Positions 17,864 through 47,340 of a stretch of DNA of 64,000 nt are shown piece by piece. Every line of letters starts with the position of its first letter. Positions within the stretch are counted from its first letter, which is position 1. The DNA comes from Thermoplasmata archaeon (lineage in GTDB: Archaea; Thermoplasmatota; Thermoplasmata; Lutacidiplasmatales; UBA184), in NCBI GenBank assembly GCA_049591535.1, contig JBAWFC010000008.1, positions 9,791 to 73,790 on the forward strand. Reading direction: 5' to 3'. The notes beneath the pieces are model-generated. The model did no database searches and had not been told where the DNA came from. It saw nothing but the letters and a program-made list of their open reading frames with translations. The position numbers and the translations under genes were made by a program.

Positions 17864-17867
17864 GGCG

Positions 17868-22763: not shown

Positions 22764-23699
22764 TTAGCGGTATCCGTGCCAAGTAATCGTAAAGTCCGAC
22801 TTCCCGAAGAAGTAGCTGGACAGCGGTCCCGTCTTCTGGATCGTCTTTCCGCTAACGCCCCCGATCTGGTCGATGACGTAGTTGGTGACGTGCGACCCGT
22901 GGCTGCCGATTCCCGCGAACGTAGAACCAACGGTGTCCGCGCACGCGTAGAAGGTCGTGGTCCCGTAGTCGCTCAGCTTCGCGATTCCCCCGTTGACGCC
23001 TGGGGCCTCGGAGATGCACTCGGCCGAGCCGTCTACTCCGGTCTCGCAGCCATTCGAGTCGCAGACGGTGGGGTTCCCCGTGACCTGGAACGACGCGGCC
23101 TGATCGTCGGTGTCTCCGACCTGCAGCGTGTAGATTCCCGCCACTCCATTGTAGGACGCCGCCGGGTTGTAGAGGATGTAGGCCTGGAGGAAGTCTCCCG
23201 CGCCGACCGTCGACACGAGTTGAACGCTGTTGTACGGGTAGAACTCCCACCAGTCGTAGTACACCGGCGTCGCACCGGGAGACGAGCAGTAGGAAAGCGA
23301 TCCGGCTTGCTCCACCGTGCCGGTGCCGTATCCGTCGATCCCAACCCACGAGACCTGGTAGGTGAACCCGGAGGTCTCACCGCACGTTACGGTGGGGACG
23401 TTCCACTCCGCCGTGACCTCGTAAATGCTGCCGGAGGTCGCCGTATTGGCGTACCCGGCCCAGTTTCCGCTGTTCACGTGCTGGGCTGCCTGAACGGGTC
23501 CCCGCTGCATGGAGGCATGCATGGACGCCGTGATCGCTGCCAAGTTCGCCGAGATCGAATTCTCCTTCTCAGTGGTCTGGGCCGCCGGTGTCGCATGTAG
23601 TGCCGCTCCGGCAGCGACCACCGCAAAGCCGACCGACAAGACCATCGTTGCCGCTAGCACCAGCGAAGCTGCTACGCTCCACCAGCCCTTCGTCTGCAT
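22764..23699 (-). CDS. Secreted glutamic peptidase, family G1 (eqolisin / former A4)
   Basis: An N-terminal TM/signal is present. The G1 hallmarks are in order: NSGNWAGY, ...YQVSWVGIDGY... (the catalytic Gln region) and ...GSAECISEAP... (the position of the catalytic Glu, AEWIVE-like). The size and beta-sandwich-like composition also fit. Confidence 0.7.
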   Translation of the reverse strand: MQTKGWWSVAASLVLAATMVLSVGFAVVAAGAALHATPAAQTTEKENSISANLAAITASMHASMQRGPVQAAQHVNSGNWAGYANTATSGSIYEVTAEWNVPTVTCGETSGFTYQVSWVGIDGYGTGTVEQAGSLSYCSSPGATPVYYDWWEFYPYNSVQLVSTVGAGDFLQAYILYNPAASYNGVAGIYTLQVGDTDDQAASFQVTGNPTVCDSNGCETGVDGSAECISEAPGVNGGIAKLSDYGTTTFYACADTVGSTFAGIGSHGSHVTNYVIDQIGGVSGKTIQKTGPLSSYFFGKSDFTITWHGYR

Positions 23700-23924: not shown

Positions 23925-25334
23925 CTAACGGAAATGCGCGATAGGTCGTCCTTGAACGTTCGCGGGGACTGGAATCCCCATCAAGGATAGGATCGTCGGA
24001 CCGACGTCGATCAACTTCTCGGTCGGGCCGCGGACTCCCACCCCAGCCGCCGGGTTCGTGATCGAGTAGACCCCGTCGAACGAGTGCACCGAGTCGTCCG
24101 GTCCCGTGTCGTTCTCCGATAGGTAGAGCGTGTCGTAGCCCACGGTCCCGGCGGAGCGCCACGCCACGTTCCCGAAATAGACCATCATGTCGGGCGCATC
24201 GCCGCGAACTTCGTGGTAGACGCTCCGGGGAAGGCGCACATCGGGCTGGAGGGACACGCCGTCCGGCCCGCAGATCTTCCGCAGATCCCCCGTCAGTTGG
24301 GCCTCGAACTTGGGCAGATCCTTGGGGCGGATGACCCCTTCGGGCTCGCGGTCCTTGACGTTGTAGAAGATACGGGCGTAGTACCCGCCCGCGCCCCACG
24401 CCCGCGTCTTCGCCCAGTCGATGGCCGCCTTTTCGATCTGGGTCCCCGCCGGGGGCCGGGGCCCCTTGAGCGTGAGGTACCCCTTCTGGATCAGCCACTC
24501 GTTGATGCAGAAACCGCCGGCCATCGCCTGGCTGCCGTGGTCCGAGAGAAGGAGGATGCGCACGTCGTCGGCGACGCCGTCGGTCAGCGACCCGATCTCC
24601 GCGTCGAGCATCGAATAATACCCCTCCACGATCTCGCGGTACTTCGGGTTCTCCTCATAGCGCGGGTGTTTCGTGTCGAAATACTTCCAGAACGTATGGT
24701 GCAGGCGGTCCGGTCCGATCTCGTGGAGGGCAAAGAAGTCCCACTTCTCCTTCGCCCAGAGATGACGGGCGACCGCGAAGTGCTTCTTCGTCATCTGGGT
24801 GAGCTGGGCGCCGATCCGGTCGCGGTCCTCGGCGCGGAATGTCACGTCGAACTCGTAGTCGCCGGCCACTTGCTGGATCTCGTCCTTGAGGGTCGGGGGA
24901 AAAACGAAGTCCGTCGCCTTGTCCGGCGTCAGGAAATCGGAGATGTAGACGCCGTTCACCCGGGGCGGAGGGTATCCGGGCGGCATTCCGATGATACAGA
25001 CCCGCTTTCCCGCGCGCGAGAGATGGTCCCAGACCAGCGGCTGGAGGAGAGTGCGGGACGAGGGAATGTACGTCTCCCAGTAGGTGCCCGGCCGGCGGTG
25101 TCGGAACCCGTAGATGCCCAGCGTGCCGGGGTCCATTCCCGACCACATGACCGCCCAGGCGGGTACGGTGATCGGAGGGTCGGTACTGAGGAGCGTTCCG
25201 AAGGTCGATCGTTTGAGGAGTTCCTGGACGTGGGGCATCCGCGGAAGGAATCGGTCGAACAGCAGGCCGGGGGGAACGGAGTCGAGACCGATGGCGAGCA
25301 CTCGCGTCGGGGGGGAACCCATGACCGCCCCCAC
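23925..25334 (-). CDS. Alkaline-phosphatase-superfamily protein, type I phosphodiesterase/NPP-like (COG3379-type), cytoplasmic
   Basis: VLAIGLDSVPPG (metal-binding Asp), DPPITVPAWAVMWSGMDPG (Thr nucleophile position), LLLSDHGSQ and a conserved C-terminal half are present. There is no signal peptide. Confidence 0.85.
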   Translation of the reverse strand: MGAVMGSPPTRVLAIGLDSVPPGLLFDRFLPRMPHVQELLKRSTFGTLLSTDPPITVPAWAVMWSGMDPGTLGIYGFRHRRPGTYWETYIPSSRTLLQPLVWDHLSRAGKRVCIIGMPPGYPPPRVNGVYISDFLTPDKATDFVFPPTLKDEIQQVAGDYEFDVTFRAEDRDRIGAQLTQMTKKHFAVARHLWAKEKWDFFALHEIGPDRLHHTFWKYFDTKHPRYEENPKYREIVEGYYSMLDAEIGSLTDGVADDVRILLLSDHGSQAMAGGFCINEWLIQKGYLTLKGPRPPAGTQIEKAAIDWAKTRAWGAGGYYARIFYNVKDREPEGVIRPKDLPKFEAQLTGDLRKICGPDGVSLQPDVRLPRSVYHEVRGDAPDMMVYFGNVAWRSAGTVGYDTLYLSENDTGPDDSVHSFDGVYSITNPAAGVGVRGPTEKLIDVGPTILSLMGIPVPANVQGRPIAHFR

Positions 25335-25477: not shown

Positions 25478-26878
25478 TTGGCGGGGACCGGCGTGCGTCG
25501 ACGACTGTTGGTGATCGGTCTCGACGGGGTGCCTCCCGAGTTTCTCTTCGACCGGATGCGTCCGGTCATGCCGACCACGGCCCGGCTGCTCGACCGGTCG
25601 CTCCGGGCCCCGCTGCGGACCACCGACCCCCCGCTCTCGATCCCGGCGTGGCCGGTGATGTTCTCCGGTGTCGACCCCGGAACGCTGGGGTTCTACGGTT
25701 TCCGGCATCGGAAGGATCACTCGTACACCGAGACGTACGTCCCGACCTCGACCCAGATGCCGGTCCCCAGCGTCTGGCAGACGGTGTCGTCCGCGGGCCG
25801 GCGGGTGGCCGTGATCGGGATGCCGATGGGATACCCCCCGCCGATCGTCAACGGGCTGTTCGTCTCCGACTTCCTCACTCCGCCGGGAAGTCGGCCGTTC
25901 ACGTCGCCGCCCGAACTCGGCGGGGAGCTCGAAGCCAAGTACGGCCCCTATCCGTTCGACGTGGTCTTCCGTTCGAACGAGCGCGAGCGGCTGCTCGGCG
26001 AGATACTCCGGATGACCGAAACGCGGTTCCGCATCGCGGCGGACCTAGTGGCCCGCGAGCCGTGGGACCTGTTCGGAGTGCACGAGATCGGTTCCGACCG
26101 CCTCAACCACGCCTACTGGAAGTGCTTTGACGACCGGCATCCGGACTTCGTCCCCGGGAACCCGCACGCGGGGGCCGCTCGGAAGTTCTACGAGGTGCTC
26201 GACCGGGGGATCGCGGGTCTTCTCGCGGCCGCCGGCCCCGAGGCCGCGGTCCTCATCGTCTCCGACCACGGCAGCATGGCCATGCGCGGATGCTTCTGCA
26301 TCAACCAGTGGCTCGCCGAGAAGGGGTACCTCGTCCTCCGTTCACCGCCCGCTCCCGGGACTCCGCTCGAGAAGGCCGACGTCGACTGGGACCGGACGAC
26401 GGTCTGGGGCTCGGGGGGGTACTACGCACGGATCTTCTTCAATATCCGGGGCCGCGAGGCGCGCGGGATCGTGGCGCTCGACCAGGTGCCGGCCCTCCGT
26501 CGCCACCTCGAGGACGACCTCCAGCGGATCCCGGCCCCGGACGGAGAGATGCTGGACGTCGACCTGCTCGACCCCGCGTCGCTCTATCACGAAGTGCGGG
26601 GCGACGCGCCCGACCTCATGCTCTACTTCGGGGACCTGAAGTGGCGGTCCGCGGGAACGATGGGCTACCCTTCGCTCTTCCTTCGGGAGAACGACACCGG
26701 ACCGGACGACGCGGTGCACAGCTGGAACGGCGTGTTCGTCTGGTACGACCCCGAGCGGGAGGGACCGGCGGGGGAGCTGCCGACCCAGCAGATACGGGAC
26801 GTCGCGCCGACGATCCTCGAGTATCTCGGGGTCCCGCTCCCCGCGCACCTGCAGGGCCGACCGATCGTCCGGAGCTGA
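25478..26878 (+). CDS. Alkaline-phosphatase-superfamily protein, NPP-like (COG3379-type), paralogue; cytoplasmic
   Basis: LLVIGLDGVPPE, DPPLSIPAWPVMFSGVDPG (Ser at the nucleophile position) and LIVSDHGSM are present. It aligns along its whole length with 23925..25334. The start is TTG, preceded by GGAGGAG (25463-25469). Confidence 0.85.
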   Translation: MAGTGVRRRLLVIGLDGVPPEFLFDRMRPVMPTTARLLDRSLRAPLRTTDPPLSIPAWPVMFSGVDPGTLGFYGFRHRKDHSYTETYVPTSTQMPVPSVWQTVSSAGRRVAVIGMPMGYPPPIVNGLFVSDFLTPPGSRPFTSPPELGGELEAKYGPYPFDVVFRSNERERLLGEILRMTETRFRIAADLVAREPWDLFGVHEIGSDRLNHAYWKCFDDRHPDFVPGNPHAGAARKFYEVLDRGIAGLLAAAGPEAAVLIVSDHGSMAMRGCFCINQWLAEKGYLVLRSPPAPGTPLEKADVDWDRTTVWGSGGYYARIFFNIRGREARGIVALDQVPALRRHLEDDLQRIPAPDGEMLDVDLLDPASLYHEVRGDAPDLMLYFGDLKWRSAGTMGYPSLFLRENDTGPDDAVHSWNGVFVWYDPEREGPAGELPTQQIRDVAPTILEYLGVPLPAHLQGRPIVRS

Positions 26879-26900: not shown

Positions 26901-28391
26901 CTAGTCGTATCCCCACGAACGCAGCCGCGCGTCGAGTGCGACCTCGGGAGCCGCGGGGCGGCTCGACGCCTCGCTCTGGCGGGCGGCCTCCTGCGCCTCG
27001 TACGGCCGGAAGACGTCGTCCCGAACCTTCTGCGCCTCGACGCCGACGAGCCGCGTCGCCGGCACGAGGTCCGGGTCCCCCGAGACCTTCCAGCGGAGGA
27101 CTTCCCCCGAAGCGAGGTCGAGAACGAACTTCTCGTCGCCCCGGTACGCCGCCAACTGGCGGCGGTTCCACGGCTGGTCCACGCGGATCCCACGGAGCGA
27201 GCGGTTCGGGTCGGAGGCCGGACCGCCCTCGCAGAAGACGGTCCCCGAATCCGGAGCCGTCACGGAGAACGGGAACGGGGCGTGGCCCGCGTCGTCGTAG
27301 GGCACGCCGCCGGAGGCGACCGCCTTGATCCACGAATCGAGCTCGCAGAGGCTCACCCAGCGATCGACGCGCCGCGGCACCGAGAGGTTCGCCGGGGGCG
27401 ACACCACGAGCGGCACCCGGGTGATCGAGTCGGTCGCCCCGCACCCGTGGAAGACGTTGCCGCTCTCGCCGAAAGATTGGCCGTGGTCGGCGGTGACGAC
27501 GACCATCGTCCGGTCCCGCTCTCCGTGCTGCTCGAGCAGCGCGAGCAGCCGGCCGATCTTGGCGTCGGCCTCTTCGATCGAGCGGACGTACCCCGCGACG
27601 AGCGCGTCCCAGTCGACGTGGTCCTGCAGGCCCGGGACCGCGAGCAGGTAGAACCGGGGGGTGTGCATGTAGGCCCGGCCGAGAAGCCCGGGGGTGTGGC
27701 CGTTGTCCACGAGCTCGTACGGTTCGTGGACGTTCACGAAGTTGAGGAACGAGTAGAACGGCCGGTCCGTCGCCCGCTCCCGGAGCCAGTCCCCGAAGTA
27801 GCCGAGTGTGAACTCCCCGCAGACGTCCGCCTTGTAGGCGACCTCCTGCGGATGGTTCAGCATCGTGAGCGGGGCGACCAGGGGAGGGAGCTTCTCGACG
27901 AGCTTGAGCACCCGCCGGGAGTAGAGGAAGTTCGCGTGCCCGAGGAGGCTGTTCGCCACCGTCCGTTGCTCGTCGGAGATCCCGATCCGTCGGGATCGGC
28001 GGAGGTCGAACCCTTCCTCCATCCCGTACCCGCCGACGAGATGGACCATCTCGCTGAACATCGCGGTCTCGTACCCGGAGCGCTTGAGGCGCGTCGCGGT
28101 CGTGTCGGGGAACGGGACGCCTCGACGGAACGTCCGGAGACCGTGCACGTTGGGGTAAGAGCCGGTGAAGATCGAGATGTGCGAGGGAACGGTCCAGTTG
28201 GCGGGGGCGACCGCTCGGGGGAACGCGGTCCCCTGCGCCGCGAGCGCGTCGATCACGGGAGTCCGCGCGACCCGGTCGCCCTCACTCGTCCGGAAGTTCT
28301 TCGCGCGAGCGCAGTCGAGGATGATGGTGACGATGTTGGGGGAACGACCTCCGCCCGAGGAGGGCGGAGACCCGCTGGAGGGACCCGTCAT
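26901..28391 (-). CDS. Sulfatase-fold enzyme, paralogue 3, Thr nucleophile position; last gene of the coupled operon
   Basis: NIVTIILDCARA, W-T-V-P-S-H-ISIFTGSYPNVHG (Thr codon 28191-28193), VTADHGQSFGESG, and C-terminus ...DARLRSWGYD. I prefer the ATG at 28389-28391 because it forms an ATGA overlap with the upstream stop. The longest ORF starts at 28409. Confidence 0.85.
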   Translation of the reverse strand: MTGPSSGSPPSSGGGRSPNIVTIILDCARAKNFRTSEGDRVARTPVIDALAAQGTAFPRAVAPANWTVPSHISIFTGSYPNVHGLRTFRRGVPFPDTTATRLKRSGYETAMFSEMVHLVGGYGMEEGFDLRRSRRIGISDEQRTVANSLLGHANFLYSRRVLKLVEKLPPLVAPLTMLNHPQEVAYKADVCGEFTLGYFGDWLRERATDRPFYSFLNFVNVHEPYELVDNGHTPGLLGRAYMHTPRFYLLAVPGLQDHVDWDALVAGYVRSIEEADAKIGRLLALLEQHGERDRTMVVVTADHGQSFGESGNVFHGCGATDSITRVPLVVSPPANLSVPRRVDRWVSLCELDSWIKAVASGGVPYDDAGHAPFPFSVTAPDSGTVFCEGGPASDPNRSLRGIRVDQPWNRRQLAAYRGDEKFVLDLASGEVLRWKVSGDPDLVPATRLVGVEAQKVRDDVFRPYEAQEAARQSEASSRPAAPEVALDARLRSWGYD

Positions 28392-30814
28392 CCTTCGAGG
28401 ATCGTCCACTCGGCGTTCTGGTACTTGACGGAGAACTGGAAGACGGCCTCGTAGAACGTCGCGGTCGAGACGAACCCCGCCTGGTTCGGCAGCAGGAGGA
28501 AATGGATGTTGTGCTGGGCGAGGAACGTCGAGGTGTTCAGGACCGACGGGAGCACGATCGCGGGGTTGCTCGCGTCGTCCGTCGTGATCTCGAACGAGAC
28601 GGAGAACGGCTGGCCCGGGTGCGGGTTGTCGAACGTCATTTCCGCGTTGTTTGGTTCCCCCGATGTGATATTAGGCGTTCCCTCGGGGGCCGGGGTCGGG
28701 GTGACCCAACTTCGGATCGCGTAGTTCCCCGGCAGCTGGCCGAGCACCCCCGAGTCGTTCCACTCGAGGGCGCCCCCGGTCCACCAGTCTCCCGTCGCCG
28801 AGGGCGCGTGGAGGAACGAGTCCCCCGTGGGCGGTCCGGCGAGCGTGAGGTTGAACTGGGAGACGTTGGCGCCGTGGACCGGCGTGACCGTGACATTGAC
28901 CCACGTCGCGCCGCCCGCCGCGGTCGTCCCCAGCTCGGCGACGTCGAACCGTGGCGTGGAGTAGGTGAGGAGGGCCGAGTTCCCTGCCGGACCCGGCACG
29001 GCGAGCTGGGCGGCGTAGGGCCCGAGGTACGCCGGGGTCTCGGTGTAGTTTCCGCCCGAGGAACCGTTCGCGTAGATCGACTCGGGGACGACGTCGAGGA
29101 GCGGAAACGGGACCCCCTCGATGAACGCGCTGTACATCGGCGCCTGCGGCAGCGCCGTCGTGTTGAAGCCGGAGTAGGAGAGGGCCTGCACGTTGTTCGA
29201 CACCGCGGTCAGGGAGTTGAGGGCGAGATACGTCTCCTCGGCGTTGACGATCTGCCAGGACTCGAAGAGCAGCCAGGTCGGGCCGATGTCGAACGCGCCG
29301 CGGTCCGTGAGCGCCTCGCTCCACCGCACGGCGCCCTGGGTGGTCAGGATCGAACCGGACCGGCCGTTGGCGTTCAGCCACTGCGTCGCCTCGAGAAAGT
29401 AGGAGTCGTGGTCGGACCCGATCTCGGTCCGCTCGTTGCTCAGCACCGCGGGGACCGTGACGTTGGCGACGAAGAGCACGAGCACGACGAGCACCGCGAC
29501 GAGGGCGTACGCCTCGCGGGAGATCGTCCGACGCCGGCTGCGCCCGTTCGCCGGGGCGGGCGGAGCCATCCCGGGCGCTGGGGCCGGCCGGAGGCGCGGG
29601 GCGAGCACCCCCTCGAGGGAGAGGCAGAGGAGGAGGAGCACCGGAAACGTCAGGAAGTAAACGAATCGCGTGTAGTCGGTGTCGACGTGGACGACGTATC
29701 CGGCGACCGGGACGCCGCACGCCGCCAGCAGGCTCGCCGCGGCGATGTAGTGCCGGAGGTCGACGCGATGGGGGCGCCAACGGGCGGCGGTCGCGAGCAG
29801 GGCGAGGACCCCGAGGCCGGCGGTGACGAGGACCGCCACCGCGATCCAGGGACCCATCGTCACGCCGGCGGCGGCGGGAACGAGCATCGGCCCGCTGTTC
29901 AGCGGCCGGAAGATCTCCCCGATGTTGTCGATCAGGTACGCCGCGGGGTTCGACGCGATGTATCCCGGAACCTGGATCCGGAGGTACTTCGTGAGCTGCT
30001 CGTAGGCGACGACCGTCACTCCCAACACGATGAGCCCGGCGACGTTCGCCTTCGAGACGATCGTGCCCCACCAGCGACGGTCGGTGAGGACGAGGAGGAA
30101 CGCCGACACGACGACGGTCGCGGCGAACACCGCGAACGTCAGGTCGTGAGTGAGGTAGATCAAGCTCGCCACCCCGTAGAACAGGAGCCCGTCCCGGAGG
30201 GTCCGCGTGCGGAGGAACAGCAGCAACAGGACCAGTGCCTCGTTGAACAGGACGAACGCGAGGAAGTTCGGGTACCCTCCCCAGAACAGGATGGAGAGGG
30301 TCGTACCGTTGAGGACCATGAGCCCGACGAACAGCAACTGGAACGGACCGTGGACGAGGTACCGCCGGGCCACGTGGACCGTGGTGAGCCCGAACGCGAA
30401 CAGGAGCGCGCCGCCGAAGACGAAGTCGGCGGTGAGCGGGCTCCCGGTCAGGAGGACCGCGACCCCGAGGAGCGGAAAGATCCCCGGATTGTACAGGAAC
30501 GGTGAGCCGACGGCGTCCACGGGAGGGTGCGCCAGACCGACCCAGGCGAACGAGCGCTGGACCCAGTCTCCGCTGTCAACGCCGGGGGGCACCGGCGCCA
30601 TCCCGTAGGCGAGTTCGACGATCACGACCGAGACCACGACGAGGAGGAGTCCGAGCGCGAGGTACGCGCGCGAAGCCGAGGTCTCCGGGGGAGGGAGCGG
30701 CCGTTCCGGGACCTGTTCTCCCCGCCAGGCCGACACCAGCCACGACCGCGCGCCCCCCGCCGGGCGGGCCGGCGGCGGAGGGTACGAGTCGGGCTCCGGG
30801 TTCACGCTCGCCAC
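28388..30814 (-). CDS. GT-C-like polytopic membrane protein, paralogue B (~808 aa)
   Basis: The multi-TM N-terminal half carries VPPGVDSGDW after TM1 (Asp codon 30575-30577), FWGGYPNF, LTHDLTF and HVDTDYTRF. The sequon-rich extracytoplasmic C-terminal half ends in ...YQNAEWTILEG. The tool ORF extends to 31435, but that part overlaps the upstream gene. Candidate GTG starts at 30814 or 30805 overlap the upstream TGA (30802-30804). Confidence 0.75.
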   Translation of the reverse strand: MASVNPEPDSYPPPPARPAGGARSWLVSAWRGEQVPERPLPPPETSASRAYLALGLLLVVVSVVIVELAYGMAPVPPGVDSGDWVQRSFAWVGLAHPPVDAVGSPFLYNPGIFPLLGVAVLLTGSPLTADFVFGGALLFAFGLTTVHVARRYLVHGPFQLLFVGLMVLNGTTLSILFWGGYPNFLAFVLFNEALVLLLLFLRTRTLRDGLLFYGVASLIYLTHDLTFAVFAATVVVSAFLLVLTDRRWWGTIVSKANVAGLIVLGVTVVAYEQLTKYLRIQVPGYIASNPAAYLIDNIGEIFRPLNSGPMLVPAAAGVTMGPWIAVAVLVTAGLGVLALLATAARWRPHRVDLRHYIAAASLLAACGVPVAGYVVHVDTDYTRFVYFLTFPVLLLLCLSLEGVLAPRLRPAPAPGMAPPAPANGRSRRRTISREAYALVAVLVVLVLFVANVTVPAVLSNERTEIGSDHDSYFLEATQWLNANGRSGSILTTQGAVRWSEALTDRGAFDIGPTWLLFESWQIVNAEETYLALNSLTAVSNNVQALSYSGFNTTALPQAPMYSAFIEGVPFPLLDVVPESIYANGSSGGNYTETPAYLGPYAAQLAVPGPAGNSALLTYSTPRFDVAELGTTAAGGATWVNVTVTPVHGANVSQFNLTLAGPPTGDSFLHAPSATGDWWTGGALEWNDSGVLGQLPGNYAIRSWVTPTPAPEGTPNITSGEPNNAEMTFDNPHPGQPFSVSFEITTDDASNPAIVLPSVLNTSTFLAQHNIHFLLLPNQAGFVSTATFYEAVFQFSVKYQNAEWTILEG

Positions 30815-33402
30815 AGGATCTTCCACTCCGGGTTCGAGTAGGCGGGGGCGAACTGGAACTCGCTCTCGTAGTAGGCAAAGATCCGCCCCATTCCGGGGGT
30901 GTTCACGAGCACGAGGAAGTGGATATTGTTCTGGGCGAGGAACGCGTTCGTGTCGAAGTACGTCGGGAACGTGGTGGCCGGGTTGCTCGTTCCGGGGGTG
31001 GACATCGTGAGGGATACCGAGAGCGCCCCGTGGACCGTGGGGTTGCTGAACGTGAGGTGGTAGCCCACGCCGCCGATGAGGTTCGAGAACTTTCCGATCG
31101 GGACCGCGGAGAGCAGGACCTGGGTCGTGAGGGTCCTCGGGCTCGGGAGCTGGCCGATCTTCGCCGAGGTCTGCCACGTGATCAGGTTGGCGCTCCGCGA
31201 AAGGCTTGCGATCGTTCCCCGCTGGGCGAGCGGGGTGGGTTCCGGCTGGGTCAGGTTCAGGCTCACCCGGGTGATCTCGACCGAACTGTCTGCGGGCGTG
31301 ACCGTGATCGCGTCGCTCGCTTGACTCCCGGGACCCACGGAGGTGCTCACGTTCAGTAGGAAGTTCTGGGTCCGGTAGGCGAAGCTGAGGGTGGGGACCG
31401 GGGACGCGCTGTAGGCCACCGCGGACGGCGACCACGTCGCAGGGTCGTAGACGATGTTCTGGGCCCCGCTCGTGTTGTTGAAGTTCACGTCGAACTGGGT
31501 CGCGTTGATTCGCAGGATCGGCACAACCACCCCCTCGACGAACACGGCGTACCCCGGGGTGTTATTCAGGGAGTTCGAAGAGGTGCCGCCCATCGTCGCG
31601 GCCACGAGGTTGTTCGATATCGTGTAGTGCGAGTTGACCGCGAAGTAGCTTTCGAGGTCGCTCAGTACCTGCCAGCCGTAGAAGTGGAGCCAGGTGGGCC
31701 CGTACGTGAACGCGTTGCGATCGGAGAGCGCCTGGACCCAGCGCTGGGTGTCGCTCGTATCGGCGAGCACCGCTCCCGAGGATCCGTTCGAGCGCAGCCA
31801 TTGCATCGCCTCGACGAAGCCCGAGTTGTGAGTGGAGCTGGCGTAGGTGCTCTCCGAGAGCTGGACGGTCGGGACGGAGACTCCCACGAAGACCGCGACG
31901 AGGACGAGTGCGACCCCGGCCCGGATCGCCCACCAGCTCGGGGTCCGGTCCGGGCTCCATCGCGGGGCGACGGTCGCGTGACCTTCGGCCGAGCCGTCGA
32001 CGGCGCCGCCGGGGACCACGGCCGCGACGGCCGGGCCCGGTGCCATCCAGGGCCGGAGGAAGCGTTCGACCACGATCGTCGCCGTCAGGCCGAGGGGAAG
32101 GACGAAGAACAGCGTGAACCGTGCGTAGTCGGTATCCACGTGGGCGAGCCAGCCACCGACCGGCAGGAGGCACGCCGCGACCAGCGACGCGAGCGCGAGG
32201 GTGAGCCGCGGGGGAACCCAGCCGGACCTCGACCGGCGGACGAGGAGCATCGTCACGAACGTCGCGGCGGCGACGGCTACGAGGATTTCGGTCATCAGCG
32301 CGGAGTCGAGCGCGATCGCCGGCCCGATCGGCCACCAGAACGGGGCGTACCCGAGCGGATGGAACAGCTCTCCGAGGTTGTCGAGCACATAGGCGGCCGG
32401 GTTCGTCGAAAGGTAGCCCGGGTGCGGGATCGCGAGGGAGTCTGTGGCGAGGGTGTACGCGGCCACCGTCGCGCCGAGCAGGAGCAGGCCGCACAGGTTC
32501 GCCCACGAGAAGATCAGGCGCAGCCACCGTCGATCCTGGGCCAGAAGGAACGCACCCGCCACGAGCAGGGTTCCGAGCAAGACGACGAAGGTGAGGTCGT
32601 GGGTCAGGAACACGAGCGACGCGAAGGCGTAGAACAGCAGGCCGTCCCGCATCGACCGGGTACGGGTGAACGCGAGCAGGAAGACGAGGGCCTCGTTGAA
32701 CAGGACGAGCGCGAGGAGGTTCGGATATCCTCCCCAGAACATCACCTGCAAGACGGCCCCATTGAAGAGAATGAGCCCGACGAACAGGACCTGGAACGGT
32801 CCCGTAAGGAGGTAGCGCCGGGCGACGTGGATGGTCGTGAGCCCGAACAGCGCCAGCAGGATCCCCGCGAAGACGTAGGCGGTCGTGATCGGGTTTCCGG
32901 TCGCGAGGAGTACGGCCCCGAGGAGCGGGAACGTGAGCGGCGGGTACAGGAGCGGCTGAAGCGTCGGGTCGGCGCTGGGGAACGGCAGCCCGACGAACGA
33001 CTTCGAGAGGGTGATCCAGTGGGCGGGGTCCACCCCCGGAGGGATGGCAGAGTTCGCCGGCAGGGATCCGACGAACCCCCAGTACATCAACGCGACCGCC
33101 GCACCGACGATAACGAGGCACGGGAGAAGGTACCATCGCGTCACTTTCCCGGAGCCGGAACTGGCGACGGGACGGTTCGGTGGGGGGATGCTCGGCCCCG
33201 GAGAATCGGGGGATGCGGAGGGTCCCGGGGTGGGCGGAACGACGGCGGCAGCAACAGGTGGCATTGATACCGGACCGGCCGGCGGCGCCCGAGGCTGCTG
33301 GGGAAGTAATACGGTTTGCGCACCGAGGGAAATCGTGCGTGCGCGGACGGGTTCGATGGTCCCGTCCCTCCGGACCGGGATCGAGTCCGAAGCGGGGGTC
33401 AC
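30802..33402 (-). CDS. GT-C-like polytopic membrane protein, paralogue A (866 aa)
   Basis: IPPGVDPAHW (Asp codon 33028-33030), FWGGYPNL, LTHDLTF and HVDTDYARF are present, and the C-terminus is ...YSNPEWKILWRA. The GTG start at 33400-33402 overlaps the GT4 stop (GTGA). Confidence 0.8.
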   Translation of the reverse strand: MTPASDSIPVRRDGTIEPVRARTISLGAQTVLLPQQPRAPPAGPVSMPPVAAAVVPPTPGPSASPDSPGPSIPPPNRPVASSGSGKVTRWYLLPCLVIVGAAVALMYWGFVGSLPANSAIPPGVDPAHWITLSKSFVGLPFPSADPTLQPLLYPPLTFPLLGAVLLATGNPITTAYVFAGILLALFGLTTIHVARRYLLTGPFQVLFVGLILFNGAVLQVMFWGGYPNLLALVLFNEALVFLLAFTRTRSMRDGLLFYAFASLVFLTHDLTFVVLLGTLLVAGAFLLAQDRRWLRLIFSWANLCGLLLLGATVAAYTLATDSLAIPHPGYLSTNPAAYVLDNLGELFHPLGYAPFWWPIGPAIALDSALMTEILVAVAAATFVTMLLVRRSRSGWVPPRLTLALASLVAACLLPVGGWLAHVDTDYARFTLFFVLPLGLTATIVVERFLRPWMAPGPAVAAVVPGGAVDGSAEGHATVAPRWSPDRTPSWWAIRAGVALVLVAVFVGVSVPTVQLSESTYASSTHNSGFVEAMQWLRSNGSSGAVLADTSDTQRWVQALSDRNAFTYGPTWLHFYGWQVLSDLESYFAVNSHYTISNNLVAATMGGTSSNSLNNTPGYAVFVEGVVVPILRINATQFDVNFNNTSGAQNIVYDPATWSPSAVAYSASPVPTLSFAYRTQNFLLNVSTSVGPGSQASDAITVTPADSSVEITRVSLNLTQPEPTPLAQRGTIASLSRSANLITWQTSAKIGQLPSPRTLTTQVLLSAVPIGKFSNLIGGVGYHLTFSNPTVHGALSVSLTMSTPGTSNPATTFPTYFDTNAFLAQNNIHFLVLVNTPGMGRIFAYYESEFQFAPAYSNPEWKILWRA

Positions 33403-34649
33403 GGGCCGCCCGGGGGGCCCAACTCGACCCCGAGTTCCTGGAGCAAGCGCGCGTAGTCCGCGGCGACGTCCGTCCAGGTACGAATGGCGGACGGAACCGA
33501 GGGGCGTGGGGCGTCCAGCATCCGGTCCATCGCCTCCGCGAGCTCCGCCGGGCGGCCCGGCGGGACCAGGAGCCCGCGAACGCCGTCATGCGGCACGTTC
33601 TCGGAGGTCCCGGGGAGGTCCGTCCCGACGACGGGGACGCCGCACGCCGCGGCCTCTTCGAGCGCCGTCGCCGTCGACTCGAGCACACTCACGGAAGGGA
33701 CGACGACGAGGTCGGAGTCGCGGTAGAGGTTTCCCAGCTCGGGGTCGGGGACGAACCCGAGGAATTCGACCCGGTCTCGTAGCCCCAGCGCATCGACCTG
33801 ACGTTCGAGCGATGCCTTCGAAGGTCCGCGTCCCGCGATGCGGAGGTCGAACTCTCGCCCCCTCGACCGCAGGCGGGCGCTCGCGTCGAGCAGGATCGGG
33901 ACGCCCTTGTACGGGACCAATCGCCCGACGAACAGGATCCGCTTCCTTCCGGACGGGTCGGGGGTCCGGCGGACGGCGGTCCCCGAGGACGCCTCGGACC
34001 CGATCCCGAGGCGGGCCGGGTCGACCCCCTTCGGGATCACCCGCACCTTGTCGAGGTGATGCGAAAGCACGGGGGATGCCTCCGCATAGCCTCGGCTGTT
34101 GGAGACGATCGCGTCGCAGCCGTCGAGGGCCGGGTGGGCAGAAAATCGCCGGTACATCCGAGTCACCGTCCCCGCTCCCGGGCCTCCCTCGGCCGCCCCG
34201 AGGTCGGCATCCATGTGGTAGGTCAGAACGGCCGGGGCGCCGGCGCGGTGGGCCGTACGAACGGCGGGAGCCTCGACCATCGGGAACGGCATGTGGAGGT
34301 TGAGGGCTCGACTCCGCCGGATCTCGGCCCAGAGGCGACGTCGGGAGCCCGGCCCGAGGAGGAGGGGCCGTTGCCATGCCTCCCACGCCCGCAGCCGGGT
34401 CACTCGGGCGGCCCCGACGTCAAGGGCCGATGCCCCGGGGTCCCACCGGACGGTCGTCGTGAGGACCTGGGTCGGCGCTCGGGTGGCGAAATCCTGGGCC
34501 AGCCGGTACGCGTACTCCTCGGTGCCGCCGCGATAGGAGGGGGGGAGAGGTACCACCACGGTCACCGGGCGGGCCGGCCCTGCGGTAATCCCGTCCGCCA
34601 TTCTTCCGCCAAACCCCACTAGGTCAAGAGAACGGCGGAGCGACGGCAC
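33399..34649 (-). CDS. GT4 family glycosyltransferase (GT-B)
   Basis: The canonical GT4 C-terminal region is present: ILFVGRLVPYKGV ... FLGFVPDPEL ... DLVVVPSVSVLESTATALEEAAACGVPVVGTDLPG. The start is ATG at 34649 or at 34601. Confidence 0.85.
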   Translation of the reverse strand: MPSLRRSLDLVGFGGRMADGITAGPARPVTVVVPLPPSYRGGTEEYAYRLAQDFATRAPTQVLTTTVRWDPGASALDVGAARVTRLRAWEAWQRPLLLGPGSRRRLWAEIRRSRALNLHMPFPMVEAPAVRTAHRAGAPAVLTYHMDADLGAAEGGPGAGTVTRMYRRFSAHPALDGCDAIVSNSRGYAEASPVLSHHLDKVRVIPKGVDPARLGIGSEASSGTAVRRTPDPSGRKRILFVGRLVPYKGVPILLDASARLRSRGREFDLRIAGRGPSKASLERQVDALGLRDRVEFLGFVPDPELGNLYRDSDLVVVPSVSVLESTATALEEAAACGVPVVGTDLPGTSENVPHDGVRGLLVPPGRPAELAEAMDRMLDAPRPSVPSAIRTWTDVAADYARLLQELGVELGPPGGP

Positions 34650-34774
34650 TCTTTCGCCCTACCGGAGGTCACGCGCGGGGAGGTTCGGTGTCGAGGGTTC
34701 CGCACCGAAACCCGAGAGCGGCGACGCGACTTCCGGGACGATTCGACCACCGGCTGTGGCCGCGAAATTCGTCG

Positions 34775-36229
34775 TTAGGCCGGGGGGATGCCGCCCGCCG
34801 AGCCGGGGTCGCCGTCCGCGGTCACGCCCTCGGAGCCGGCCCGCCAGGAGGAACGGAAGAACGAGGGGTCCCGCCGCTCTCGAAGTACCGTGTAGTTCGT
34901 GTGGGCGACGTTGGCGGCGATCAGCGTCACGTCCCGTTGGGCCGCGAACTGCGCGATGGAGGAGCTGAGGATCCGTAGGGAGCTCAGGGGCCGGTCCGAG
35001 CTTCTCTCGAGTCGGTACGCCTGCGACCGGGAGGTTCCGCCGTCCGGCGGCTCGGGGGCCGCGTCGGGGGTGTTCTCCATGTCCACGTAGAGCATTCGTT
35101 GCCCGGACGGCATCCGGATCGTGCACGTGGGGCCCGGCCGGCGCAGAGAGCCGCGAGGCAGGGTGATCACGATCGACCACGGCTGGCCGTCGGGAGCCGG
35201 AGGTGATGGGGGGGCGGGCGACTCGGAGGCGGGGTGGGCGGCTTCGTTCGGTGGGCTCGGGATGACCGCGACCGTCATCTCAGGGTTGGCGAGGGTGAGG
35301 CGCTGCGCGAGCTCGGAGACGCCCTCGGATCCCCCGGCGGGGGCGGAGACGAACACGCGACGGCTGTTGAGCGCGAAGAGGACCGACTGAAGGTCCCGCA
35401 TCGTCGGCGCCGGGAGTGTCGGCGACGTGACCGAGTAGGCTCCGGGGGTCGGACCGGTGCCCGCCGCGGGGGGCCGGGAGTATCGGAGGATCGACAGCAA
35501 GATGCGGGCGCCGTCCTGGAAGGCGTGGAGCTTCGCCACGCCCACCCGGCTCCGGTACAGGACCGGGACCTGGGAGATCGAGAGTCCACGGCGGAACGCC
35601 TTGACAAAGATCTCCGCTTCGATGTCGAACCCTTCGGACTCGATCGGAGTCTGCTCGAGGGTCGAGGTGCGAATTCCCCAGAGCCCGCTGCAGACATCGA
35701 GGATCGGGCCCTTCGCGAAGTATCCGGCGAGCAAGTTGAGGACGCTGTTTCCCAGCCGGTGGATCAGTCCCTTCAGCTCGCTCATGGCGTGGCGGTCCGG
35801 TCGACGGACGCCGATCACGAGGTCGGACCCCGCGTCGAGCAGGGTCGCCATGGACGGAAGCGCGGCCCCGGGGTACGTGAAGTCCGCGTCCATCACGATC
35901 ACGTAGGGGATCCCGCGGTCGGTCGCCCAAGCCATCCCTTCCCGGACCGCGGCTCCCTTGCCCTTGCCCTGCTGGACGAAGAAGGTGGTCCCGAGCGACC
36001 GGGCAACGGAGGGGGTCCGGTCGGTCGAATGCCCGTCCACGACGACGACCGTAGGGTCGAACCCGAGGTTTCGGAGTTCCGCGATCGGGAGGTCCCCGAG
36101 AGTGGCCCGGAGTCCCTCTTCCTCGTTAAGGGTCGGAATGACTACGGCCAAGCGCGCGGGCGCGATGACCGTTCGACCCTCCATGGTTATACATCCCCCA
36201 GAGCGAGGTTGACTCCCCATCGCTTCCAT
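34775..36229 (-). CDS. GT2 glycosyltransferase with ~230-aa uncharacterised C-terminal extension
   Basis: The GT2 core is LAVVIPTLNEEEGL ... VVVDGHSTDRT ... VIVMDADFTYP (D-x-D) ... DVCSGLWGIR. After ~residue 255 comes a Pro-rich linker, then a domain I do not recognise (...RVFVSAPAGGSEGVSELAQRL...RMLYVDMEN...). Confidence 0.8.
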   Translation of the reverse strand: MEAMGSQPRSGGCITMEGRTVIAPARLAVVIPTLNEEEGLRATLGDLPIAELRNLGFDPTVVVVDGHSTDRTPSVARSLGTTFFVQQGKGKGAAVREGMAWATDRGIPYVIVMDADFTYPGAALPSMATLLDAGSDLVIGVRRPDRHAMSELKGLIHRLGNSVLNLLAGYFAKGPILDVCSGLWGIRTSTLEQTPIESEGFDIEAEIFVKAFRRGLSISQVPVLYRSRVGVAKLHAFQDGARILLSILRYSRPPAAGTGPTPGAYSVTSPTLPAPTMRDLQSVLFALNSRRVFVSAPAGGSEGVSELAQRLTLANPEMTVAVIPSPPNEAAHPASESPAPPSPPAPDGQPWSIVITLPRGSLRRPGPTCTIRMPSGQRMLYVDMENTPDAAPEPPDGGTSRSQAYRLERSSDRPLSSLRILSSSIAQFAAQRDVTLIAANVAHTNYTVLRERRDPSFFRSSWRAGSEGVTADGDPGSAGGIPPA

Positions 36230-36310: not shown

Positions 36311-38992
36311 GTGTGTGCCGTCGTGACACGGGACGCGGCTCCTCTCTCGGAAACCCGTCGACCGGCAGCGCTCCGGACGCGTTTTCGGGAGCTAGCTTTA
36401 TACTCCGAACCCAGCATCGGTCGGCCCCTCGGGGGACCGGAGGTAAGTGTCGCACAGGTGTCGGTGCCTTCATCTGTTCGGGGGGGGCACTATTCGCTAG
36501 TGTCCGCCGTTTTGGAACCGACTCCGGCGCCCACCCCGGGGCCCGGTTCGGACGAAGGATCCCGGGCGGGCACCCCCGAGAATGACCCCCGACCCGGCTG
36601 GGCGACCCAGTTCTCCACGTACCTGGGGACGCGCGACGGGGCCAGCTGGGCGGTCGCGGTGTTCATTTCGGGCGCGATCTCTATCGGGCTGGCCGTCGTG
36701 ATCTTCCAGTACCCGATCCCGCCGGGCGGGGACCCAGGGACCTGGCTGTCGACGAGCTATGCGTACATCGGACGCTCGTACCCGTCCCAGGTCTTTCCCC
36801 TCGCCTACCCTCCGGTCATGTTCGTGCCCTTGGGTCTCGCCGTCCTCGTCGGCGGTGGGCCGATCGGGGGCGCGCAGCTGTTCGCGCCGCTCCTGTACTT
36901 TGCGCTCGGCCTGTCGATCTTCGCCCTCGCGATCAATGTGCTGAAAAGCCGTCTCGTCGCCCTCGTCGTGCTCTCGTTCATCGTCCTCGATCCGCAGCTG
37001 CTCCAGATGGTGTTCTGGGGGGCGTATCCGAACCTGTTCGGATTCCTCCTGATGAACCTCGCCTTTGTCGGTCTCCTCACGATGGGACGCGGTGCCGTCT
37101 CGCGAGGCGCCCTGATCTTCTGGCTCTTCGCGACGCTCACCGTCCTGACCCATTCTCTGACCGCGCTGGTCCTGGCCGGGGGCACCGGACTGTTCCTGCT
37201 CCTCGCCTGGGCGATGCCGGTCCCGTCAACGGAGACCCTGGTATACCAGGCAAAACGCAACGAGGTCGATGTCCCGAAGGTGATCCCCCGCGGCCTCTTC
37301 TTCACGAAGGGGGGCCGCTACGGCTTCGTCGGGTTCGTCATCGCGGTCTCCGCGTACTACTTCCTCACCGCGCTCGCCCACGTCCCCCACCCGGACTACT
37401 TCGTCTCGAGCGCGCTCGCGTTCCGGACGATCGGCCTCGGCGGCGTGCTGACGGCCGTCCTTCCCGGGATCCTGATCGTGGCCCTGGGCGCCGTGTACGT
37501 CCTCACCGTGCTGGTCATCGTCGTCCTGCTGACGTACTCCGGGCTCTACCTCTACCGCCTGAAGTACCTCACGACCCCGGTCCTGCTTCTGATCGCGATC
37601 GGGGTGGTCGTCCTCACCGTGCCCATCATCGGCTGGATGTTCAAGATCGTCACGGACTACCGCCGGTTCGGCTACTTCCTCCTCATCCCCCTCGGCCTCA
37701 CGTTCGGTTACATCATCGACCGGGGTTGGATCTCGGCCGGTGGTCCCCGCGAGCGCGGCCGAGCGAATGCGGCGTCGAACGCTCCCCCGATGCCCCCGAC
37801 GGTTCGGCGATGGATGGGACGGGCCCGTCACCCGCGGCGCATCATCTCTCTCGCCCTCATCGCGTTCGTGCTGACCCTCCTCTTGGCGGTCAGTATCACG
37901 GCGCCCGAGATGAACAAGTACGAGATCACGTTCACGCGGGTCGGGCACGACCAGTACTTCCTCGACGCGCTCAGCGCGATCACCCATTCGGGGCTCCCGG
38001 GAGGCATCCTGACCGTCGCGGGGGCCGACAAATGGGCGCGGGCGATCACCGGTCGCAACGCGTTCGCGCCGTACACCCAAACGGACTACCTGTTCTACGA
38101 GAGTCAGATTCTCGATTCGGAGCTCGCCTACTACGCCCTCAACTACCATTATGCGGTCACGAACGGGCTCGTGTCGGCGGGGATCAAGGGTACCCAGGCG
38201 CAGTACACACTCGGGATCCCGTCGTACGGTATCTATTCGGTGGGGACGTACCGCTCCATCCTCAAGATCCCCCCCCAGATGGTCGAGGTGGAGCTGATCG
38301 GGGCGACCAACCACACGGCCTACCACGAGAACATGACGACCAACCCGACGGTGGACGTTCCCCCCACGTCGGGCGGAGGGCCGCTCGAGGTCGTCTACAC
38401 GGAATCGGACTTCGTCTTCACCGAGAGCATGGTCGTGGCACCGACGACCCCGTATCTGTACCTCGCCTTCCACGTGCAGGCGACGGGCGCCGACCTGGTC
38501 CGAGCGTTGAATATGACCCTCCTTCCGTCCAACACCACCAGCGCGCGGATCCTCCCGACCCCCGTCGCCGGTAACTTCAGTTGGGACACGGTCACCGCCA
38601 ACATCGGGCCGCTGACGCGAGGGAACGTGACGCCGGCGTCGGCGCTCGTGGGGATCACCCAAGACCTCCCGATCACCGACCTCACCGGCTCTCCCGCCGT
38701 CCTGCTCTCCTACACGTCGGCGAGCACGAACGGGAGTCTCTCGGTGGCCGGCCAGTTGACGTTGACGACGCCGGCGGCGTCCACGATCTTCAACGTCGTG
38801 CCACCCGTGATCGACACACCGCAGATCTTCACCCAGCTCGGCGTCGGCTTCGTGCTGATGCGGAACTCGACCTATCCACCGATCCCGGCTCCGGGTGCGG
38901 CGTACCCGCAGGAAGCGTCGTACTACCAAGCCGAGTACGGTGCCCAGGTGATCTACCAGAACCCAGAGTGGACCGTGCTCACGGTCCCGTAA
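36311..38992 (+). CDS. GT-C-like polytopic membrane protein, paralogue C (start probably near 36458)
   Basis: IPPGGDPGTW (Asp codon 36731-36733), FWGAYPNL, LTHSLTA and IVTDYRRFGYF are present. The C-terminal extracytoplasmic domain ends in ...YQNPEWTVLTVP. It is transcribed divergently from the GT2 gene. Confidence 0.8.
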   Translation: MCAVVTRDAAPLSETRRPAALRTRFRELALYSEPSIGRPLGGPEVSVAQVSVPSSVRGGHYSLVSAVLEPTPAPTPGPGSDEGSRAGTPENDPRPGWATQFSTYLGTRDGASWAVAVFISGAISIGLAVVIFQYPIPPGGDPGTWLSTSYAYIGRSYPSQVFPLAYPPVMFVPLGLAVLVGGGPIGGAQLFAPLLYFALGLSIFALAINVLKSRLVALVVLSFIVLDPQLLQMVFWGAYPNLFGFLLMNLAFVGLLTMGRGAVSRGALIFWLFATLTVLTHSLTALVLAGGTGLFLLLAWAMPVPSTETLVYQAKRNEVDVPKVIPRGLFFTKGGRYGFVGFVIAVSAYYFLTALAHVPHPDYFVSSALAFRTIGLGGVLTAVLPGILIVALGAVYVLTVLVIVVLLTYSGLYLYRLKYLTTPVLLLIAIGVVVLTVPIIGWMFKIVTDYRRFGYFLLIPLGLTFGYIIDRGWISAGGPRERGRANAASNAPPMPPTVRRWMGRARHPRRIISLALIAFVLTLLLAVSITAPEMNKYEITFTRVGHDQYFLDALSAITHSGLPGGILTVAGADKWARAITGRNAFAPYTQTDYLFYESQILDSELAYYALNYHYAVTNGLVSAGIKGTQAQYTLGIPSYGIYSVGTYRSILKIPPQMVEVELIGATNHTAYHENMTTNPTVDVPPTSGGGPLEVVYTESDFVFTESMVVAPTTPYLYLAFHVQATGADLVRALNMTLLPSNTTSARILPTPVAGNFSWDTVTANIGPLTRGNVTPASALVGITQDLPITDLTGSPAVLLSYTSASTNGSLSVAGQLTLTTPAASTIFNVVPPVIDTPQIFTQLGVGFVLMRNSTYPPIPAPGAAYPQEASYYQAEYGAQVIYQNPEWTVLTVP
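36396..36403 (+). promoter_or_regulatory. TATA-like CTTTATAC upstream of the third GT-C-like gene
   Basis: Read directly. It lies inside the 5' end of the maximal ORF 36311.., which suggests the true start is downstream, for example the in-frame GTG at 36458 preceded by GGAGG at 36439-36443. Confidence 0.35.
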
Positions 38993-47009: not shown

Positions 47010-47340
47010 AACGATGACCCCCGCGCCCGGCCCGGGACCGCATCGCACCGGGGCCCGCCGAACGAGGGTGTGCTCGAACGAGGGCAGGAGCGCGTTCCCC
47101 GCGGAGAGGGACCGAGGGCGAACGGGGAAGGGCACGGGCGGGCGGAACGTCCCCCGCGGCGAACGGGACTTGCGCGGGGGGGGCACCCGGGGGTCGCACG
47201 GCGGCCCACCGAAGGTCCCCGGTCCGATCTGGAGCAGCACAGAACCGCCGAAATCCCGCATTCGGTGAGTACGCATCCAAACGTATAACCACCCCACCCG
47301 CTCCGCTCCGCTCAAATACCCGGGCTCGTGACGTAGTACG

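Follow-up and report, generated by a model that had tools for sequence, protein, structure and literature searches.

What does an archaeon assemble with two cytoplasmic glycosyltransferases, two related polytopic membrane proteins and a sulfatase-like enzyme encoded one behind the other? The question is raised by a 64,000-nt stretch of DNA (the window) from a Thermoplasmata archaeon (contig JBAWFC010000008.1 of GCA_049591535.1; GTDB Lutacidiplasmatales; UBA184). Five long open reading frames (ORFs) run head-to-tail on its minus strand and encode a family 2 glycosyltransferase (GT2), a family 4 glycosyltransferase (GT4), two GT-C-fold membrane proteins (A and B) and a sulfatase-fold member of the alkaline phosphatase superfamily (S1). 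A third GT-C paralog (C) is transcribed divergently. We judge it moderately probable that the region is a surface glycosylation island in which sugars are carried on dolichyl phosphate and also sulfated, and in which the paired GT-C enzymes transfer them outside the cell. The original prediction, made from the sequence alone, had placed one surface-glycan system at 26.9-45.9 kb; a glycan system is still the best reading, but the island of this cell-wall-less archaeon is larger, about 50 kb, spanning roughly 4-54 kb of the window. The strongest contextual evidence comes from genes that the prediction had overlooked: an ATP sulfurylase, two adenosine 5'-phosphosulfate (APS) kinases, two more sulfatase-fold genes of the same threonine type (S2 and S3), two phosphodiesterase-like genes (PDE1 and PDE2) and a flippase (Table 1).

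Organization and conservation of the locus

The genes around S1 were compared by tblastn with 41 related loci (L numbers). The relatives all belong to Thermoplasmata or 'Candidatus Lutacidiplasmatales' metagenome-assembled genomes (MAGs) from acid soil and peat, and the proteins of the window are nearly identical to those of one Thermoplasmata MAG (99% identity to P0001). In all 14 adjacencies of an S1-type gene with a GT-C gene, the GT-C gene is of the B type and lies directly upstream. The GT-C partners of S2/S3-type genes are C-like or B-like, and these genes occur in other arrangements, often as repeated pairs. The GT-C/sulfatase-fold pair appears to have been duplicated as a unit.

In most loci with enough flanking sequence, the pair of B and S1 is adjoined by a GT2 gene resembling AglJ, by genes for proteins resembling the NPP family and by an ATP sulfurylase or APS kinase gene. 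At least 12 loci have an ATP sulfurylase or APS kinase gene beside S1 or a PDE gene; ATP sulfurylase adjoins S1/PDE in L009-L012, L022, L028 and L029, and an APS kinase stands beside the cluster in L001, L003, L004, L006 and L025. PDE1 is kept beside S1 in most loci, PDE2 in nine (L001, L003, L004, L013, L022, L025, L029, L035 and L037), the flippase in six (L003, L004, L010, L012, L025 and L035) and the divergent C-type gene in five (L001, L003, L004, L013 and L025). GT4 was found in L001-L004 only, and paralog A is likewise limited to the closest relatives. Judged by these comparisons, the conserved core consists of GT2, a B-type GT-C protein, the sulfatase-fold enzyme, the phosphodiesterase-like proteins and an ATP sulfurylase or APS kinase, with GT4 and paralog A as accessories.

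All five minus-strand ORFs are present and have the high third-position GC (GC3) typical of coding sequence; the window as a whole has a GC content of 68%. Translational coupling had been proposed for all five genes. Start and stop codons overlap at A/B and B/S1 alone, however, and tight coupling is therefore limited to the A-B-sulfatase unit. At the first of these junctions, which was read directly in the sequence as predicted, the TGA stop of A (30802-30804) is overlapped by B, for which in-frame GTG codons lie at 30805, 30814 and 30826. The codon at 30826 is the start that NCBI uses for P0011, a protein nearly identical to B. The N-terminal 48 codons of B are coding, since their GC3 is 0.88. 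A 4-nt A/B overlap recurs in the gene calls of L001, L004 and L005. At the second junction, the predicted ATGA (28388-28391) joins B to S1, and the same ATGA stands between a B-type GT-C gene and a sulfatase-fold gene in six other loci (L001, L003, L004, L009, L013 and L035), so that seven genomes in total share a 4-nt GT-C/S1 overlap.

A third overlap had been read as GTGA at 33399-33402, between the GT4 stop and the start of the A ORF. The letters are there, but this GTGA is very probably an artefact of ORF extension and not a true start. Codons 1-86 of the ORF (30802-33402) have flat GC of 0.71/0.70/0.70, vs. a GC3 of 0.91 in the remainder, and the NCBI start for a near-identical A protein is V87 (780 aa). 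The A orthologs, which are 818-829 aa long and begin with some 38 residues rich in Pro and Ser, fit the ATG at 33264. Positions 33265-33402 are probably non-coding, and the gap between GT4 and A is 134-254 nt, depending on the start chosen for A. At the same position, L001 has a 155-nt gap and L003 an extra gene. GT2 and GT4 are spaced by about 173 nt, measured from the GT2 stop at 34775 to the likely GT4 start at ATG 34601, which is preferred because 34602-34649 has no GC3 bias.

In L003, GT2 and GT4 are separated by a phosphoglucomutase/phosphomannomutase gene (5177-6568), and GT4 and A by a gene for a PQQ/PKD surface protein (7955-9697). These insertions are consistent with a supply of hexose phosphate for the pathway and with a weak linkage of GT4 to A. 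The ORF of C is over-extended at its 5' end, coding-like GC3 being found only beyond about codon 90; positions 36500 and 36512 are candidate starts. With either of them, some 270-330 nt separate C from the GT2 gene as a divergent promoter region.

Folds and active-site motifs

The family assignments of the original prediction were borne out: GT2 and GT4 by Pfam, the GT-C-like paralogs by AlphaFold2 and Foldseek, and S1 as a sulfatase fold with threonine in place of cysteine. A is 40% identical to B over 751 aa and 28% identical to C over 796 aa. A hydropathy scan gave 10-11 segments each for A, B and C. The AlphaFold2 model of A, based on 33 homologs, was confident, with a predicted local distance difference test score (pLDDT) of 89 and a predicted template-modeling score (pTM) of 0.87. 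It showed about 13 transmembrane (TM) helices and, after them, a domain rich in beta strands (residues 457-778). This is the topology of GT-C enzymes, which have 8-13 TM helices, the N-terminus inside and an extracytoplasmic C-terminal domain.

Foldseek searches of the PDB with the membrane part of A matched GT-C glycosyltransferases exclusively: STT3 (8age_A, E = 2.3e-7), PglB (6gxc, 4.6e-6), EmbA/B (1.5e-5; EmbC also matched), DPY19 (1.2e-4), ArnT (3.8e-4) and AftA (1.9e-3). TM-scores to solved GT-C enzymes were 0.3-0.5. The C-terminal part of A matched beta-sandwich domains of GH65 and GH63 enzymes. All 33 sequences compared share an aspartate (D39) in the motif PPGVD, which lies in the first outer loop, just behind TM1; its position is that of the catalytic acid of GT-C enzymes, and we take its role to be catalytic. 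On the strength of the model, A, B and C are predicted to be outward-facing glycosyltransferases of the GT-C fold with an external beta-sandwich.

A matched the Pfam family PTPS_related with an E-value of 1e-3 at 18 bits, below the cutoff of 26.4, and searches of Pfam and NCBIfam with B and C gave no match. PMT_2 (31.9 bits, cutoff 26.1) and PTPS_related (28.9 bits) are matched by distant members of the family. Among 1.84 billion representatives, a profile search found just 340 clusters, of which 112 had E <= 1e-30. The family is small, restricted to this lineage and without a Pfam model of its own, with at least five copies in some genomes. A, B and C had no match to PF02516 (STT3) and no WWD or WWDxG motif; they are not AglB because both the STT3 domain and the WWDxG motif are absent.

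The closest solved relatives of S1 are true sulfatases and arylsulfatases (PDB 3ed4, 2e-18). Its motif W-T-V-P-S-H aligns where sulfatases have C/S-x-P-x-R. The motif was located in 107 of 120 homologs, and every one of these has the Thr and the His (in the other 13 it was not located). Formylglycine cannot be formed in S1 because T-V-P-S-H replaces the maturation motif. The metal-binding Asp and the DHG motif are kept, and D302, H303 and G304 are invariant. S1 has neither a signal peptide nor a TM segment and is predicted to be cytoplasmic. Its C-terminal tail, RLRSWGYD, is conserved; the tails of Thr-type sulfatase-fold proteins are nearly invariant as RLRSWGY[D/G/E], with exactly LRSWGYD in 75 of 120 homologs, and the tail may be a docking or oligomerization element. 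Homologs on haloarchaeal plasmids, which lie in glycan clusters, are 25-30% identical to S1 and share WT[VIL]PSH; one of them, with WTLPSH, adjoins a flippase and glycosyltransferases. The tail of a haloarchaeal homolog (L042, 8980-10446) is LEELGYL.

The two NPP-like genes lie directly downstream of S1. A sequence search of the PDB with PDE1 found nothing. In L025 the matches to S1 (12298-13802) and PDE1 (18300-19689) are each split over two frames, as a result of frameshifts (pseudogenes) or assembly errors.

GT2, whose 469-aa form is the one that matches P0156, resembles dolichyl-phosphate-hexose synthases in sequence and in its predicted structure. Its top NCBIfam matches were AglJ (TIGR04182, 144.6 bits) and dolichyl-phosphate (Dol-P)-hexose transferase (NF041391, 93.4 bits), both far below their equivalog cutoffs (325 and 375, respectively). 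The AlphaFold2 model (pLDDT 84) has a GT-A fold like that of polyprenyl-phosphate GT2 enzymes and matched Pyrococcus dolichyl-phosphate-mannose synthase (DPMS, 5mlz; 25% identity, root-mean-square deviation 3.1), and further matches of the catalytic domain were to ArnC, GtrB and GpgS. The DxD motif, D99-A-D101, is invariant in the alignment. GT2 has no TM helix and ends in an alpha/beta domain of about 210 aa, for which no relatives were found by Pfam or NCBIfam; hits to the catalytic domain took over the Foldseek search run with the complete GT2 model, which assigned no fold to the C-terminal domain. This two-domain architecture is kept across 43 aligned Thermoplasmata proteins, the GT2 of the window included.

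Proposed pathway, precedents and alternatives

The genes suggest a pathway of four steps. On the cytoplasmic face of the membrane GT2, together with GT4 where present, would load a sugar on dolichyl phosphate. A Thr-type sulfatase-fold enzyme, possibly with the NPP-like proteins, would decorate the lipid-linked sugar, most likely with sulfate from the APS or 3'-phosphoadenosine 5'-phosphosulfate (PAPS) made by the neighboring ATP sulfurylase and APS kinases. The flippase would carry the lipid-linked sugar across the membrane, and the GT-C enzymes would then transfer the sugar to surface glycoproteins or lipoglycan. We infer a polyprenyl-phosphate-linked donor for the GT-C enzymes from the conserved neighboring GT2 that resembles Dol-P-hexose synthases. 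The overlap of their genes would allow B and the sulfatase-fold enzyme to be produced in fixed proportion, and the two proteins may form a complex.

A GT2 synthase, a flippase and a GT-C transferase make up the standard logic of three-component systems (DPM1/PMT, ArnC/ArnT, GtrB/GtrA/Gtr* and CsbB/YfhO). The window likewise encodes a GT2 similar to DPMS, ArnC and GtrB, a flippase and outward-facing GT-C-fold enzymes. It departs from these systems in that its GT2 has no TM helices and carries the extra soluble domain, its GT-C proteins match no Pfam model and have their own C-terminal beta-sandwich, and a cytoplasmic sulfatase-fold enzyme is part of the operon. S1 resembles type I formylglycine sulfatases in its PF00884 fold, its metal-binding Asp and its DHG motif, and differs from them in its T-V-P-S-H motif, its predicted cytoplasmic location and its linkage to biosynthetic genes.

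The precedent for the decoration step, on which the sulfation proposed here is modeled, is found in Halobacterium salinarum. Agl30 (VNG1056C) and Agl31 (VNG1057C), two sulfatase-like proteins of the alkaline phosphatase superfamily in the N-glycosylation cluster, sulfate the N-glycan, as Zaretsky et al. (2025, PMC11980604) showed by deleting their genes and by expressing them in Haloferax. Agl30 is membrane-associated and Agl31 is soluble and cytosolic, and their reported substrate is a Dol-P-linked glycan; the paper is silent on the nucleophile, on formylglycine and on PAPS or another sulfate donor (PMC11980604). S1 is similar in being a sulfatase-like protein of the alkaline phosphatase superfamily in an archaeal glycosylation cluster, a comparison made by description, and it is predicted to be soluble and cytoplasmic, as is Agl31. 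The Halobacterium cluster is anchored by AglB, whereas that of the window has a paired GT-C gene overlapping S1, in which the Thr and His substitutions are strictly conserved.

In the low-salt pathway of Haloferax volcanii (Agl5-Agl15), a sulfated Dol-P-linked glycan is made, with Agl15 as the flippase, and an enzyme other than AglB, as yet unidentified, transfers it to protein (PMC3892788). No GT-C gene has been reported for that pathway, unlike the window. The Thermoplasmatales have no S-layer; their cells are densely covered with surface proteins and carry a lipoglycan as well as N-glycans that bear sulfofucose (PMC12448462). The genome paper on Lutacidiplasmatales makes no mention of glycosylation or sulfatases, and a literature search for the pairing of GT-C with sulfatase and for an AglB-independent transferase found no description. 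The exact gene set corresponds to no described pathway, in line with the original prediction, but it follows known archaeal N-glycosylation logic, in which a Dol-P-hexose synthase similar to AglJ is combined with sulfatase-fold sulfotransferases (Agl30/Agl31, PMC11980604). Homologs of the genes are syntenic in related genomes, and the membrane proteins fold as GT-C enzymes, as had been predicted.

Several observations weigh against the sulfation island. The GT-C active site and S1 are on opposite sides of the membrane, which leaves their tight pairing without a mechanistic explanation. Family members are known from MAG sequences, all of them from uncultured organisms. A Thr nucleophile is typical of phosphoryl and not of sulfuryl transfer (NPP, LtaS and EptA). 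In S1 a His takes the place of the Arg of C-x-P-x-R, and the lysines with which canonical sulfatases bind sulfate look replaced in the alignment with 3ed4, as judged by eye.

The main alternative, which we consider rather unlikely, draws on the last of these points: the Thr-type sulfatase-fold and NPP-like proteins would transfer or hydrolyze phosphoryl groups, not sulfate. Their role might be to put a phospho-substituent such as phosphoglycerol or phosphoethanolamine on the lipid-linked glycan, or to split precursors activated by nucleotides, and the sulfate-activation genes would serve another route, such as the synthesis of a sulfonate sugar or sulfolactate. S1 also scores on the Pfam model Phosphodiest, and a gene for a phosphosulfolactate synthase of the ComA type stands beside that for ATP sulfurylase. 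The sulfofucose of Thermoplasmatales glycans is a C-sulfonate sugar made from sulfite (PMC12448462), and the sulfate-activation genes could therefore serve the sulfofucose route instead. On the other hand, the nearest solved relatives of S1 are true sulfatases, many loci have an ATP sulfurylase or APS kinase gene next to S1/PDE although they are rearranged, sulfotransferase activity was reported for the sulfatase-like proteins Agl30 and Agl31 (PMC11980604), and neither a sulfonate-sugar synthase similar to SQD1 or Agl3 nor a PAPS reductase turned up among the window ORFs scanned.

A second alternative concerns the GT-C enzymes. STT3, AglB and PglB resemble A in having about 13 TM helices, in the acidic residue of their first external loop and in a C-terminal domain that lies outside, and STT3 and PglB were the best structural matches (E = 2e-7 to 1e-5, with identities of 11-14%). 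Sequon-rich anchored proteins are encoded next door, and AglB-independent transfer of a sulfated glycan has a parallel in Haloferax (PMC3892788). The GT-C proteins could thus be AglB-independent oligosaccharyltransferases that place a whole, perhaps sulfated, glycan onto Asn of the neighboring surface proteins. This is the less likely of the two alternatives given so far. The C-terminal domain of A is a beta-sandwich of the GH65/GH63 type, and the STT3 domain and WWDxG are absent. TM-scores to STT3 and PglB reach just 0.37-0.45, and enzymes that are not oligosaccharyltransferases (Emb, ArnT, DPY19 and AftA) match about equally well. The multiple copies per genome better suit transferases that elongate or decorate a glycan.

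That the alkaline-phosphatase-superfamily genes encode scavenging hydrolases for phosphate or sulfate starvation, outside any glycan pathway, is very unlikely: a bona fide PstSCAB phosphate transporter lies a few kilobases away and the sulfatase and NPP families are classically hydrolytic, but the proteins have no secretion signal, the formylglycine motif needed for hydrolysis by sulfatases is absent, S1 overlaps the GT-C gene in the seven genomes and always follows a B-type gene, S2/S3-type copies are co-duplicated with GT-C paralogs, and a Pho-regulon explanation is rejected because PstS was found beside the cluster in none of the 41 related loci. A split enzyme similar to EptA or LtaS, with a membrane anchor and an external sulfatase, was also rejected, since an export signal is missing from S1 and the hallmarks of GT-C enzymes are retained in the membrane protein.

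Within the sulfation island as favored here, the GT-C/Thr-sulfatase-fold pair may, speculatively, be an unrecognized two-enzyme module. The threonine would be sulfated from APS or PAPS, giving a covalent sulfo-enzyme in the cytoplasm, and would pass the sulfate to a Dol-P-linked sugar. The co-translated GT-C partner would be specialized for moving this sugar, independently of AglB, onto lipoglycan or the proteins of the surface. Every copy of the pair (B with S1; a C-like protein with S2 or S3) would provide a different sulfated decoration of the coat. We put this forward tentatively; if true, it would explain how the sulfatase-fold sulfotransferases described in 2025 work and would supply a candidate family for the missing AglB-independent transferases.

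The single parts of the locus (GT2, GT4, GT-C and the alkaline phosphatase superfamily) are familiar. Archaeal glycan sulfation has been tied to sulfatase-fold proteins only recently, by genetics and without a proposed mechanism, and the cluster offers a comparative data set in which a strict Thr/His active site is combined with linkage to ATP sulfurylase and APS kinase, suggesting a chemistry that can be tested. It also delimits a lineage-restricted GT-C family in abundant archaea of acid soil and peat, which are wall-less and depend on a coat of glycoprotein and lipoglycan, and it provides candidates for glycosyl transfer independent of AglB.

Other genes of the window

Table 1. Coordinates of the principal genes in the window (positions in nt from its first letter).
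Feature	Position	Strand	Remarks
Sulfatase-fold enzyme S3, Thr-type	6773-8290	-	Pfam Sulfatase 4e-32; WTIPSH; C-terminal RLSSWGY
Sulfatase-fold enzyme S2, Thr-type	11474-13012	+	Pfam Sulfatase 9e-29; WTIPSH; C-terminal RLRSWGYT
Flippase, Wzx/AglR-type (Polysacc_synt)	13183-14754	-	Pfam 1e-20
Second APS kinase	21455-22006	+	Pfam APS_kinase 1e-53
APS kinase (PAPS formation)	22076-22612	-	Pfam APS_kinase 1e-55
PDE2, NPP-like, cytoplasmic	23925-25334	-	Pfam Phosphodiest 6e-36; motif T-V-P-A-W
PDE1, NPP-like, cytoplasmic	25478-26878	+	Pfam Phosphodiest 2e-33; motif S-I-P-A-W
Sulfatase-fold enzyme S1	26901-28391	-	ORF to 28409; Pfam Sulfatase 1.4e-27 (97 bits, cutoff 25), Phosphodiest 3.5e-15
GT-C-fold membrane protein B	28388-30814	-	Conserved partner of sulfatase-fold gene; possible starts 30805/30814/30826
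GT-C-fold membrane protein A	30802-33264	-	Start ATG 33264 (820 aa) or GTG 33144 (780 aa); ORF to 33402
GT4 (GT-B), cytoplasmic glycosyltransferase	33399-34601	-	Pfam Glycos_transf_1 6e-37 and Glyco_transf_4; ORF to 34649
GT2 glycosyltransferase	34775-36184	-	ORF to 36229; likely start ATG 36184 (469 aa); Pfam GT2 6e-19
GT-C paralog C	36311-38992	+	Divergently transcribed; true start probably near 36500-36512
Anchored clan-A glycoside-hydrolase-like protein	39072-41330	+	N-terminal signal/TM, C-terminal TM anchor; 14 sequons
Second anchored glycoside-hydrolase-like paralog	41497-43827	+	29 NxS/T sequons
Anchored Kelch beta-propeller surface protein	43942-45855	+	Pfam Kelch 3e-27; TM anchors
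ATP sulfurylase (sulfate adenylyltransferase)	52591-53757	+	Pfam 1e-78; NCBIfam 422 bits, cutoff 387

On the divergent side, the third GT-C paralog, the anchored glycosidase-like proteins and the Kelch protein were found as predicted. The glycosidase-like protein of 39072-41330, which is 52% identical to its neighbor, carries the motifs IGNEFP and NTETNLN. Against the PDB it gave a marginal match alone, to the GH39 beta-xylosidase 4ekj at 0.01. Neither the two glycosidase-like proteins nor the proteins orf566 and orf855 matched Pfam or NCBIfam. The Kelch protein recurs beside GT-C/sulfatase-fold pairs in many loci. Other membrane-anchored, sequon-rich surface proteins of the window are a PQQ/PKD protein and a 1660-aa PKD protein; the neighboring surface proteins have TM anchors, and their sequons number 11-35. 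Elsewhere in the window there are additional genes for GT2 and GT4 enzymes, and a scan of the window for tRNA genes found none.

The two APS kinase genes adjoin on opposite strands, and the corresponding pair in L001 is 91% and 49% identical to the kinase of 22076-22612. Between the flippase and the APS kinases lie the genes of a phosphate ABC transporter, for PstS, a fused PstC-PstA (671 aa) and PstB (17111-21126, minus strand), with PstS scoring 238.7 bits, above the cutoff of 205. Next to the ATP sulfurylase gene, a phosphosulfolactate synthase of the ComA type is fused to a C-terminal winged-helix domain similar to MarR and TrmB (54141-55388, plus strand). The presence of this fusion in a non-methanogen hints that sulfonate metabolism or its regulation is tied to the same sulfur-activation genes.

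The protein orf566 (45801-47501, minus strand; 566 aa) has hydrophobic segments and a Pro-rich tail, and it recurs near Kelch genes and GT-C/sulfatase-fold pairs, for example in L005, L006, L010, L016, L018, L022 and L023. The gene for orf855 (4006-6573, plus strand; 855 aa) is convergent to that of S3, and its product contains FGVRYILVDRS in the C-terminal region. BLASTP detected no similarity between orf855 and the GT-C paralogs. In L035 a homolog of orf855 adjoins an S1-like gene, homologs also occur at other sites in the flanks of L022 and L019, and orf855 may represent another partner family. A secreted peptidase of family A4, a family of acid-active proteases, is encoded inside the island (22764-23699, minus strand), which is consistent with an acidophilic lifestyle.

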